DNA of 64,000 nucleotides from a virus (taxonomy: Duplodnaviria; Caudoviricetes), in the IMG/VR virus record IMGVR_UViG_3300020434_000055; one strand, written 5' to 3'. Shown here piece after piece: positions 43,692 through 45,627 of the stretch. The notes beneath the pieces are model-generated. The model saw only the letters and a list, made by a program, of their open reading frames with translations, ran no database searches and was not told the DNA's origin. Position numbers and translations under genes: made by a program. Each line of letters opens with the position of its first letter. The stretch's first letter is position 1.

Positions 43692-44027
43692 ATGAAAAAG
43701 TGTTTACTAATATTACTGGCTATACTATTTTTATCTACCCAAACTATGGCGTTAGAATATAAGCCGGGTAAGAAACATCTAAACAAAGAAGGTGTTGTTG
43801 GTTTATTATTAATTCTTAATGGAAAAATGATAGAACACGTTTTCAAACCAAACATATCTGCTTGTATGAAATCCAAAAGAATAGCACAAAGAGAAATGGA
43901 TTCGAGCAACGAATCAAAAGGAGCAAGAGTAATTTTTACTTGTAAAATACTCGTAGCAGATTTAGAAGAAGATTCTCAAACCAAATATGGTTTAAGAATT
44001 ATAAAAGTACACTCAGGAGTAAATTAA
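43692..44027 (+). CDS. Exported protein with a two-Cys domain
   Basis: Signal peptide; CMKSKRIAQR...FTC; TAAATA 43678-43683. Confidence 0.75.
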   Translation: MKKCLLILLAILFLSTQTMALEYKPGKKHLNKEGVVGLLLILNGKMIEHVFKPNISACMKSKRIAQREMDSSNESKGARVIFTCKILVADLEEDSQTKYGLRIIKVHSGVN

Positions 44028-44031
44028 TAAT

Positions 44032-44256
44032 ATGGAAAGTAGAAAATTAAAAGGAACGATTTTCTTAGCAGTAGTTTTAATTGCTATTGTATGGATTTTG
44101 GCTACTAAACCAACGCCAACTCAAGCGGCTTGTACAGGTTGCGGAGATGGTGGACATGGTACTTGTATTGAGAAGCCAGGACATACACATGATGACGAAC
44201 AAGGTCATGAGCATGAAGAAGGTACTTGGTTGGATCATAAACACGACCCAAAGTAG
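44032..44256 (+). CDS. Membrane-anchored Cys/His-rich protein; N-terminal part of a candidate frameshift gene
   Basis: TM, CTGC...C, HTHDDEQGHEHEE; ends C CCA AAG TAG. Confidence 0.7.
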   Translation: MESRKLKGTIFLAVVLIAIVWILATKPTPTQAACTGCGDGGHGTCIEKPGHTHDDEQGHEHEEGTWLDHKHDPK

Positions 44257-44600
44257 AAAAGATTCTAATTGAAGAACACGCACAATCAGAATCTACACCG
44301 GAAGATGGCGTTGTATTTGCAGTATGCATTTTTGCTATTGCTGAAGATGGGACTAGAGTACTAGTCGATCATAGAGCATCTGATGACTTAATGCACTGCT
44401 TAAAAAATAAAAGAGAAGCAGAAAGAGATTATAGAGATCCTGAGAAAAGAAATAAAATGTATCCTGGCTCTACTGTATTCACTATGACTTGTGATAAAGT
44501 AGACGCTAAAATTAGAATCAAAGAAGACGGCAGTTGGGAAATACTTGATATACTAGGCAGACATGAAGAAGCATACAGAGAAAAGAAATCCTGGGAATAA
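44241..44600 (+). CDS. Open -1 frame encoding a paralog of the 43692 domain; no in-frame ATG until 44391
   Basis: DGVVFAVCIF...HCLKNKREAER...MTC. Confidence 0.65.
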   Translation, partial: TRPKVEKILIEEHAQSESTPEDGVVFAVCIFAIAEDGTRVLVDHRASDDLMHCLKNKREAERDYRDPEKRNKMYPGSTVFTMTCDKVDAKIRIKEDGSWEILDILGRHEEAYREKKSWE

Positions 44601-44604
44601 AAGA

Positions 44605-44633
44605 TTGACATAACTACCCAAATATGTTATAGT
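44605..44633 (+). promoter_or_regulatory. sigma70-type promoter
   Basis: TTGACA-17-TATAGT. Confidence 0.75.
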
Positions 44634-44651
44634 AGTATAAATATAGAAAAG

Positions 44652-44679
44652 AATTTTGCCGTCATGGCAAAATTTTTTT
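44652..44679 (+). terminator. Rho-independent terminator-like hairpin
   Basis: AATTTTGCC-GTCAT-GGCAAAATT followed by a T-run. Confidence 0.65.
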
Positions 44680-44721
44680 GAGTAAAATTTTTTTTTGAAT
44701 GATTGAAAAGGGAAAAAGAAA

Positions 44722-45531
44722 ATGACACAACTAATAAATCCTACAAAATATACTGATATAAATGGCCGTTTACGGTCATTTTTTTTGAATAAAGGATTCC
44801 TAGAAGTTCATACGCAAAATAGATTAAGCATATTAGCGGCGTGTGAAGATCCTACTACAATATCAACATACAATTATGCCGGGAAAGTTTGGCCCTTACC
44901 CCAAACCGGGCAGATGTGGCTCGAATATGAATTACTTAATGACCCAGCTGTGCCTGGGTTTTTTTGTATTAGCACGTCCTATCGACAAGAACCGAATCCT
45001 GTAAAAGGGAGGCATGACTTAATATTTCCAATGTTTGAATTTGAATTTCCAGGAACATTTGAAGATTTAAGAAGTATGGAAATAGAACTATGTGAACACT
45101 TAGGCTTTGGTCCTGTAATGGAAAAAAGTTATAAAGAATGGTCTAACATATACAACGTAAAAGAACTAGAAGCAATACATGAAGATCAAATGTGTAAAAC
45201 ACATGGTACTTGTATGATACAGAACTTTCCTAATACTACTTCTCCTTTTTGGAATATGAAACAAAATGGGGATGGTACTGCATCAAAAATAGATGTTATT
45301 ATAAAAGGAATAGAAACAATTGGTTCTGCAGAAAGATCAAGTGATCCGGATGAAATGCGAAAACAATTTCATACAATTTCAGAAGGTATGTATGCTGAAT
45401 TATTATACGGACGATTTGGAAAAGAACGAGTAGAAGAAGAACTTGAAGAATTTCTAGCACACGACTTTATTCCACGAGTAGGTGGTGGAATAGGTTTAAC
45501 TAGAATGATTAGAGCAATTGATCTAATATAA
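44722..45531 (+). CDS. Class IIb aaRS-like catalytic domain (AsnRS-related/asparagine synthetase-like) lacking an anticodon-binding domain
   Basis: Motif 1 R.FF...GFLEV, LPQTGQ, motif 2 SYRQE...RH...F.M.EFE, ETIGSAER, motif 3 GGGIGLTR. Confidence 0.85.
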   Translation: MTQLINPTKYTDINGRLRSFFLNKGFLEVHTQNRLSILAACEDPTTISTYNYAGKVWPLPQTGQMWLEYELLNDPAVPGFFCISTSYRQEPNPVKGRHDLIFPMFEFEFPGTFEDLRSMEIELCEHLGFGPVMEKSYKEWSNIYNVKELEAIHEDQMCKTHGTCMIQNFPNTTSPFWNMKQNGDGTASKIDVIIKGIETIGSAERSSDPDEMRKQFHTISEGMYAELLYGRFGKERVEEELEEFLAHDFIPRVGGGIGLTRMIRAIDLI

Positions 45532-45536
45532 TTTAC

Positions 45537-45627
45537 TCTGCGGTGGCGGAATTGGTAGACGCAATTAACTGTTCATTAATGGAGTAATTATTTACTCGTG
45601 TAGGTTCGAATCCTACCCGCAGAGCCA
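45537..45627 (+). tRNA. tRNA with GTT (Asn) anticodon and a long variable arm
   Basis: Acceptor TCTGCGG/CCGCAGA, G73, encoded CCA; T-arm GTAGG-TTCGAAT-CCTAC; anticodon arm ATTAA-CTGTTCA-TTAAT; variable stem GAGTAA/TTACTC. Confidence 0.88.

Follow-up and report, generated by a model that had tools for sequence, protein, structure and literature searches.

A gene on the plus strand of the window (the whole 64,000-nt stretch of viral DNA analysed here), spanning positions 44032 to 44600, very probably undergoes genuine programmed -1 ribosomal frameshifting, by which proteins of 74 aa and 189 aa would be made. The upstream ORF is closed by a heptamer of the X XXY YYZ type, the ORF in the -1 frame has no conserved start of its own, a 3' structure lies within 5-9 nt, and the signal is conserved together with a -1 ORF that is under purifying selection. 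That slippage occurs we infer from the anatomy of the signal, its conservation, the selection on the -1 ORF and a split that is real. The gene family is undescribed and new, whilst the mechanism is classical.

The zero-frame ORF (44032..44256) encodes the short product of 74 aa, which ends in ...HKHDPK, and its 3' end reads GAC CCA AAG TAG. Within this sequence the slippery heptamer C CCA AAG (44247..44253) stands in the X XXY YYZ register of the zero frame, and the stop codon TAG (44254..44256) abuts its 3' end; the heptamer had been placed at this position and in this register, at the end of ORF 44032, by the original prediction. The -1 frame is open from 44241 to a TAA at 44598-44600, and the part that encodes the C-terminal domain (44253..44600) comprises 115 codons and the TAA. 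Its first in-frame ATG, GTG or TTG is the ATG at 44391, 150 nt in, which agrees with the earlier claim of a frame open over 44241-44600 and without an ATG for 150 nt; ILIEEHAQSESTPEDGVVFAVCIFAIAEDGTR is an example of a peptide encoded by the -1 ORF upstream of the Met at 44391. Heptamers of the forms C_CC.A_AA.G, G_GG.A_AA.G and A_AA.A_AA.G are the most efficient in E. coli, with 54% frameshifting for C_CC.A_AA.G combined with a pseudoknot (Sharma et al., PMC4066793), a ranking with which Atkins et al. agree for the same organism (PMC5009743). Within the window, C CCA AAG occurs at chance level (8 copies against 5.8 expected), and the weight of the argument therefore rests on comparative evidence. 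No Shine-Dalgarno-like stimulator was seen upstream of the heptamer, GGAGG, AGGA and GAGG being absent, by eye, from TTGGATCATAAACACGA, 10-20 nt upstream, and an Rfam search over 44000-44700 matched neither a frameshift element nor any other family.

A candidate stimulatory hairpin (44260..44294) begins 6 nt after the heptamer. Positions 44260-44266 pair with 44288-44294 and 44268-44271 with 44283-44286, giving 11 bp with one 1x1 mismatch and an 11-nt loop, and folding bore out the proposed one-mismatch stem (44260-44271 with 44283-44294) with a minimum free energy of -8.2 kcal/mol (z = -4.8), a fold that none of 200 shuffled sequences equalled. Standard pairs occupy 99.2% of the hairpin cells across 11 distinct frameshift alleles, the variation consisting of a change from U-A to U-G in two alleles and the loss of one closing pair in one allele. 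No pair changed on both sides among these 11 alleles; the support for the hairpin is one of conservation and not of covariation, and its stability is modest (-8.2 kcal/mol). Among codons with a never-varying amino acid, to which the test was confined, synonymous variation was found at 2 of 12 codons in the first 14 after the slip site, as against 46 of 68 elsewhere (Fisher p = 0.0025), and the same 14 codons form the nucleotide diversity minimum of the ORF (0.06, versus 0.1-0.3 elsewhere).

Over the homologous 47 nt, folding energies ranged from -7.0 to -8.3 kcal/mol in the frameshift alleles (-8.2 or -8.3 in the four distinct window-type sequences), compared with -3.5, -0.4 and -5.4 kcal/mol in the single-ORF relatives L001, L002 and L003, respectively, and the stem is absent from these single-ORF relatives. 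The codons ATT CTA ATT GAA (KILIEEH) of the frameshift alleles form the 5' arm of the hairpin, whereas the single-ORF relatives carry ATT ATG AT(A/T) GAG (KIMIEEH) at the same place.

Publicly available sequencing runs were searched for the window, and 20 runs from 8 studies contained at least 59% of its sampled words; contigs from four of these runs were aligned over the site. Contigs from three studies besides the probable source (X2 record 8, X3 record 16 and X5 record 24) crossed positions 44247-44256 with no gaps, which excludes an assembly error. These independent contigs depart from the window at four bases in three codons: position 44172, positions 44230 and 44232 (a Leu codon, TTG to CTA) and, in X3 and X5, position 44351. 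Read in frame 0 before the site and in frame -1 after it, every one of these differences is synonymous.

The complete signal was found in 22 sequences, these being the window and 21 further metagenome loci, which bears out the expectation that split, heptamer and hairpin would be conserved together in homologues. A search of public metagenomes with the 74-aa product retrieved 29 clusters of ORFs of 52-74 aa, all of them ending at one codon, mostly as ...HKHEKK and in some cases as ...HKHDPK, ...HKHNPK or ...HKHVKK. The DNA of the HEKK type is CAC GAA AAA AAG TAG, containing the heptamer A AAA AAG. This form is present in 15 loci, whilst the window and 6 loci have C CCA AAG. Between the two forms only the three X positions change, from AAA to CCC, and the X = X = X rule therefore survives a triple change. 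A stop codon abuts the heptamer in 22 of 22 sequences (TAG in 21, TAA in L059), and the hairpin is common to all 21 of the further split loci; the site in L061 reads AAC CCA AAG.

Scanning metagenome contigs with a 17-mer across the junction returned 35 matches, 6 of them homologous (L053, L044, L024, L051, L043 and L030) and the remainder chance matches in unrelated DNA. The six homologous loci have quite different signal peptides, yet share the ...HKHDPK stop, the hairpin and the open -1 frame. An exact 20-mer of the junction had no matches in IMG/VR, where one contig (L009) carries the A AAA AAG form. The proteins P0149 and P0150 appeared to read through the stop (HEKKQKRF); this was rejected as a gene-caller artefact in which TAG was read as Gln, the DNA of P0149 (L063:195-365, on a 556-nt contig) having TAG at the site and that of P0150 presumably likewise. 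Recoding of TAG to Gln was rejected as well, given that read-through meets a TAA three codons on and that the site in L059 is itself TAA.

A search with the joined protein, the query for which had one X at the break such that alignment numbering is shifted by +1 after residue 74, retrieved 1,158 proteins, nearly all of which are single ORFs of 156-186 aa spanning both halves. More than 1,100 homologues carry the same domain behind a signal peptide in one ORF, from which it follows that the domain needs an upstream export signal. The nearest relatives, P0002 and P0003, are continuous ORFs 81-82% identical to the trans-frame protein, and their DNA reads CAC GCA AAA GTA GAA where the window reads CAC GAC CCA AAG TAG AA; relative to its nearest single-ORF relatives (L001, L002 and L003) the window has two extra bases. 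The predicted junction peptide, HKHDPK-VEKILIEEH, matches the single-ORF sequence HKHAK-VEKIMIEEH residue for residue, and the residues flanking the junction on both sides align with the single-ORF homologues. The original prediction held that one continuous ORF in close relatives would count against it, and P0002 and P0003 are formally of that kind; the idea is nevertheless not refuted, because both are without the heptamer-plus-stop and the hairpin, and because the larger set of relatives keeps the whole signal.

The Met of the K-x-M-x-E-E-H motif is conserved in all single-ORF homologues (for instance L001, L004, L010 and L011) and is replaced by Leu (CTA) in the frameshift alleles. Since the family as a whole carries Met here, it is the frameshift cassette that is derived. 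This conserved Met may serve to bind metal or to start translation internally. Another member, P0090 (120 aa), is a single ORF of the P0003 type that has lost, by an internal deletion, the greater part of the first half of its C-terminal domain.

Purifying selection acts on the -1 ORF. Pairwise dN/dS in the -1 frame ranged from 0 to 0.35 among seven distinct complete frameshift alleles; the window and L044 differ in the -1 ORF by 15 synonymous and 0 non-synonymous changes, and the comparison of the window with L058 gave a dS of 1.0 and a dN of 0.14. The frame is open at 115-116 codons in all 8 distinct complete alleles, which are the seven of the dN/dS test and L065. The one exception is L057, a 3x long-read contig with a second break further downstream, which is probably a sequencing error. 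The -1 ORF has no conserved start codon: where gene callers begin L054 and L058 at a GTG, the window, L057 and L059 read GTT GTA, and the ATG at 44391 lies within the conserved fold, such that starting there removes two strands of the AlphaFold model. In a tree built on the C-terminal domain, frameshift alleles are mixed with single-ORF ones, and the state must have changed at least twice; recombination has therefore brought the cassette together with different domain variants and different signal peptides. Some of what looks like purifying selection could thus have been imported from intact genes by recombination.

The predicted protein begins with an N-terminal export signal (residues 1-32; 44032..44127), in which a hydrophobic helix is followed by T-Q-A before the first Cys; AlphaFold, with 63 aligned sequences, placed the helix at residues 3-25. 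An A-x-A directly before the first Cys and the CxGCG motif is conserved in all members of the family. The segment is probably a cleavable Sec signal peptide, and the protein hence extracytoplasmic, whilst a signal anchor is a possible reading of the same residues. Comparative evidence supports the proposal that the shift joins the N-terminal segment and linker to the domain, although what had been called a TM anchor is, in view of the A-x-A, more likely to be a cleavable signal peptide.

The linker that follows (residues 33-74; 44128..44253) is rich in Cys, His and acidic residues (ACTGCGDGGHGTC...HTH...HEH...WLDHKH), with three Cys and seven His in 42 residues, and AlphaFold predicts it to be disordered (pLDDT below 50 at residues 29-80). 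Among 14 frameshift alleles its Cys and His positions are invariant but for one change, H to A in L061, and its pN/pS in the same alleles is 0.23. The sequence suggests that the linker may bind metal.

AlphaFold modelled the C-terminal domain at residues 82-185 (pLDDT 80-91) with the order strand-strand-helix-helix-strand-strand. Neither the fused protein nor its relatives nor the paralogue at 43692 matched Pfam above noise, and Foldseek found no match in the PDB at E <= 0.001. AlphaFold DB clusters yielded only unnamed proteins of 66-73 aa (best TM by hit 0.74), and the best Z in a wide VIA-align search was 3.3. As modelled, the domain is without a recognisable fold, and the searches support neither a fold assignment nor a function.

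The neighbour directly upstream (43692..44027, plus strand) encodes a 111-aa protein with a signal peptide and a remote paralogue of the domain, as judged from hhalign and synteny. The paralogy that had been proposed for this ORF is real but remote: BLASTP gave E = 0.001 over 23 residues, and hhalign 88% probability and E = 2.7e-6 over 28 columns. A homologue of ORF 43692, of which 503 were found, lies directly upstream of the gene in those of the retrieved relatives that reach that far. Two of these homologues, the 109-aa exported proteins P0208 and P0234, are labelled 'lysyl-tRNA synthetase class I' by JGI, which looks like a mis-annotation, the label being suspect for a 109-aa signal-peptide protein with no Pfam match.

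If the gene is decoded as we propose, a ribosome that has translated from 44032 as far as C CCA AAG would hold tRNA-Pro in its P site (CCA) and tRNA-Lys in its A site (AAG), whilst the hairpin, 6 nt downstream, would sit at the mRNA entrance and resist unwinding. In a fraction of ribosomes both tRNAs would move back by one base onto CCC AAA, the next codon being GUA (Val) in the -1 frame. Slipped ribosomes would produce the 189-aa protein, composed of the export signal, the Cys/His-rich linker and an alpha/beta domain of about 105 residues. Those that did not slip would stop at TAG and release a 74-aa precursor, from which signal cleavage would leave a peptide of about 42 residues, rich in Cys, His, Asp and Glu.

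It is doubtful that the frameshift is a regulated switch instead of setting a fixed ratio, though one regularity can be read in that way. The slip site lies a constant 42 residues past the signal-peptide cleavage motif in every allele, and with the ribosome on the heptamer the export signal would just have emerged from the tunnel, competent for Sec, as the Cys/His segment filled the tunnel. The pull of co-translational export, or metal on the nascent linker, might then set the share of ribosomes that slip. Nascent-chain effects on -1 frameshifting have been reported (PMC12776465). With a switch of this kind, export or the supply of metal would govern how much free metal-binding peptide is made relative to the domain-tethered form.

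Other explanations of the split were weighed against frameshifting. An indel introduced into the window contig by sequencing or assembly would account for close relatives such as P0002 and P0003 being one ORF, but with an identical, gap-free site in the assemblies of three other studies and the split in 21 other loci, its probability is negligible. The domain might instead be translated separately, either by termination-reinitiation, from ATT codons at 44262 or 44268, or from the ATG at 44391, with no trans-frame fusion being made. ATT codons do lie within a few bases of the stop, and gene callers call downstream ORFs of 69-97 aa; however, a conserved ATG, GTG or TTG is lacking (where some alleles have GTG, the window and others read GTT GTA), and initiation at 44391, inside the conserved fold, would forfeit two strands. 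A free cytoplasmic copy would be mislocalised, the domain being fused to a signal peptide in more than 1,100 homologues, and reinitiation needs no canonical heptamer kept through the triple change from AAA to CCC. Amino-acid homology with the single-ORF relatives moreover reaches the slip site, and separate translation is accordingly very unlikely.

A tolerated broken gene, in which a 2-nt insertion has killed the long form and the downstream ORF appears conserved through imports by recombination, is comparably improbable. The nearest single-ORF relatives do differ by exactly 2 nt at the site, and the interleaving of both states in the domain tree points to recombination. Yet 8 of 8 distinct complete alleles keep a -1 frame of 115-116 codons open in DNA of 33% G+C, comparisons restricted to alleles with the split still give dN/dS values of 0-0.35, and the allele is present in runs of 8 studies dating from 2014 to 2025. 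Nor, in our view, does recombination rescue the idea of a dead gene, because such a gene has no need of a heptamer and hairpin that are the most conserved nucleotides of the locus. Transcriptional slippage, whereby RNA polymerase would add or delete an A within an A-run and so restore the frame, could draw on the seven-A run (G AAAAAAA G) at the site in most alleles, but efficient slippage of this type in bacteria takes a homopolymer run of nine or more, and seven A are shorter than that. Slippage is known to occur at A-runs (PMC5009743); only AAA (CCCAAAG) is present, however, in the window and in six other loci of the same architecture, and a hairpin at 6 nt with an adjacent stop are features of ribosomal frameshifting, which leaves this the less probable still of the biological alternatives. 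Programmed -1 ribosomal frameshifting remains our strongly preferred reading.

The G+C content of the window is 30-38%. It encodes a DnaB-like helicase and a large terminase 53% identical to that of the Pseudomonas jumbo phage PA5oct. Neither blastn with the locus nor tblastn with the domain matched isolate phages, and the source is therefore taken to be an uncultured marine large phage. The frameshift gene is neighboured by genes for a coiled-coil membrane protein (phrog_20984), the exported paralogue and an AsnRS-like protein. The last of these is a 269-aa AsnRS-core-like ORF (44722-45531; phrog_29758, E 3e-121), and 5 nt after it lies a tRNA-Asn(GTT) gene (45537-45627) of 91 nt, which is long for a tRNA. 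Directly past the frameshift gene, at 44605-44674, there is a near-consensus sigma-70-like promoter (11/12) consisting of TTGACA, a 17-nt spacing and TATAGT with an upstream TG. After the promoter, a 9-bp G+C-poor hairpin with a T-run (44652-44680) could terminate the upstream operon. In relatives, a 72-aa ORF about 1 kb downstream of the frameshift gene (L054:2884-3102, L065:2283-2501 and L066:2283-2501) has a weak Pfam match to ribosomal protein L33; that a phage bL33 affects frame maintenance is speculation.

Annotated phage frameshifts are almost all in tail chaperones, with tail assembly chaperones accounting for 2,397 of 2,476 joined genes in the SEA-PHAGES set (PMC10885494), and the present case stands out as belonging to an unrelated and widespread family of ocean phage proteins. 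It represents a well-supported frameshift in a non-chaperone phage gene. In the gene tables examined, gene callers split the frameshift gene into an ORF of 72-74 aa and a truncated ORF of 69-97 aa, so that those catalogues do not contain the full protein. Single-ORF, A AAA AAG and C CCA AAG alleles of a single gene coexist, and the hairpin is confined to those that would need the shift, which makes the family a natural experiment. Both the evolution of the cassette and the roles of a free Cys/His-rich peptide versus a tethered form are directly testable through these coexisting alleles. Our understanding of the frameshift mechanism is unchanged, as the signal is a textbook one, resembling those of dnaX and IS911 without the upstream Shine-Dalgarno.

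Close counterparts include the single-ORF members of the same family (P0002, P0003, L003 and over 1,100 others), in which signal peptide, CxGCG...H...C linker and C-terminal domain are all as in the frameshift protein; a His-rich insertion is further common to that protein and to P0002 and P0003. These members differ in having 2 nt fewer at the site (CAC GCA AAA GTA), with neither the adjacent stop nor the hairpin. The tail-assembly chaperones, exemplified by lambda G/GT (G GGA AAG), are likewise phage genes with a conserved -1 shift at a heptamer of the X XXA AAG type, and G/GT similarly comprises a short form and a C-terminally extended form. Tail chaperones, however, are encoded in the tail module, between the major tail or tube gene and that for the tape measure, whereas the frameshift gene described here lies among genes for small exported or membrane proteins, next to the AsnRS-like gene, and unlike the chaperones has a signal peptide. 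Its protein has no sequence match or clear fold match to the chaperones, a fold for which the fold searches nonetheless leave room. There is a clear hairpin here, whilst to our knowledge no strong structure is needed in lambda G/GT.

In the make-up of the signal, there is a likeness to E. coli dnaX (tau/gamma) and to IS911/IS3, which likewise use an X XXA AAG heptamer, the form in most alleles here being A AAA AAG; the window heptamer, C CCA AAG, is a point of difference. They also share a 3' stem-loop a few nt on, a nearby zero-frame stop and products with a common N-terminus. The upstream Shine-Dalgarno-like stimulator of the dnaX type, 10-14 nt upstream of the heptamer, was not seen here, and the shifted product would be the longer of the two, whereas in dnaX it is the shorter (gamma). 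Furthermore, dnaX and IS911/IS3 encode enzymes of replication or transposition, whilst the gene described here encodes a small, probably exported protein.
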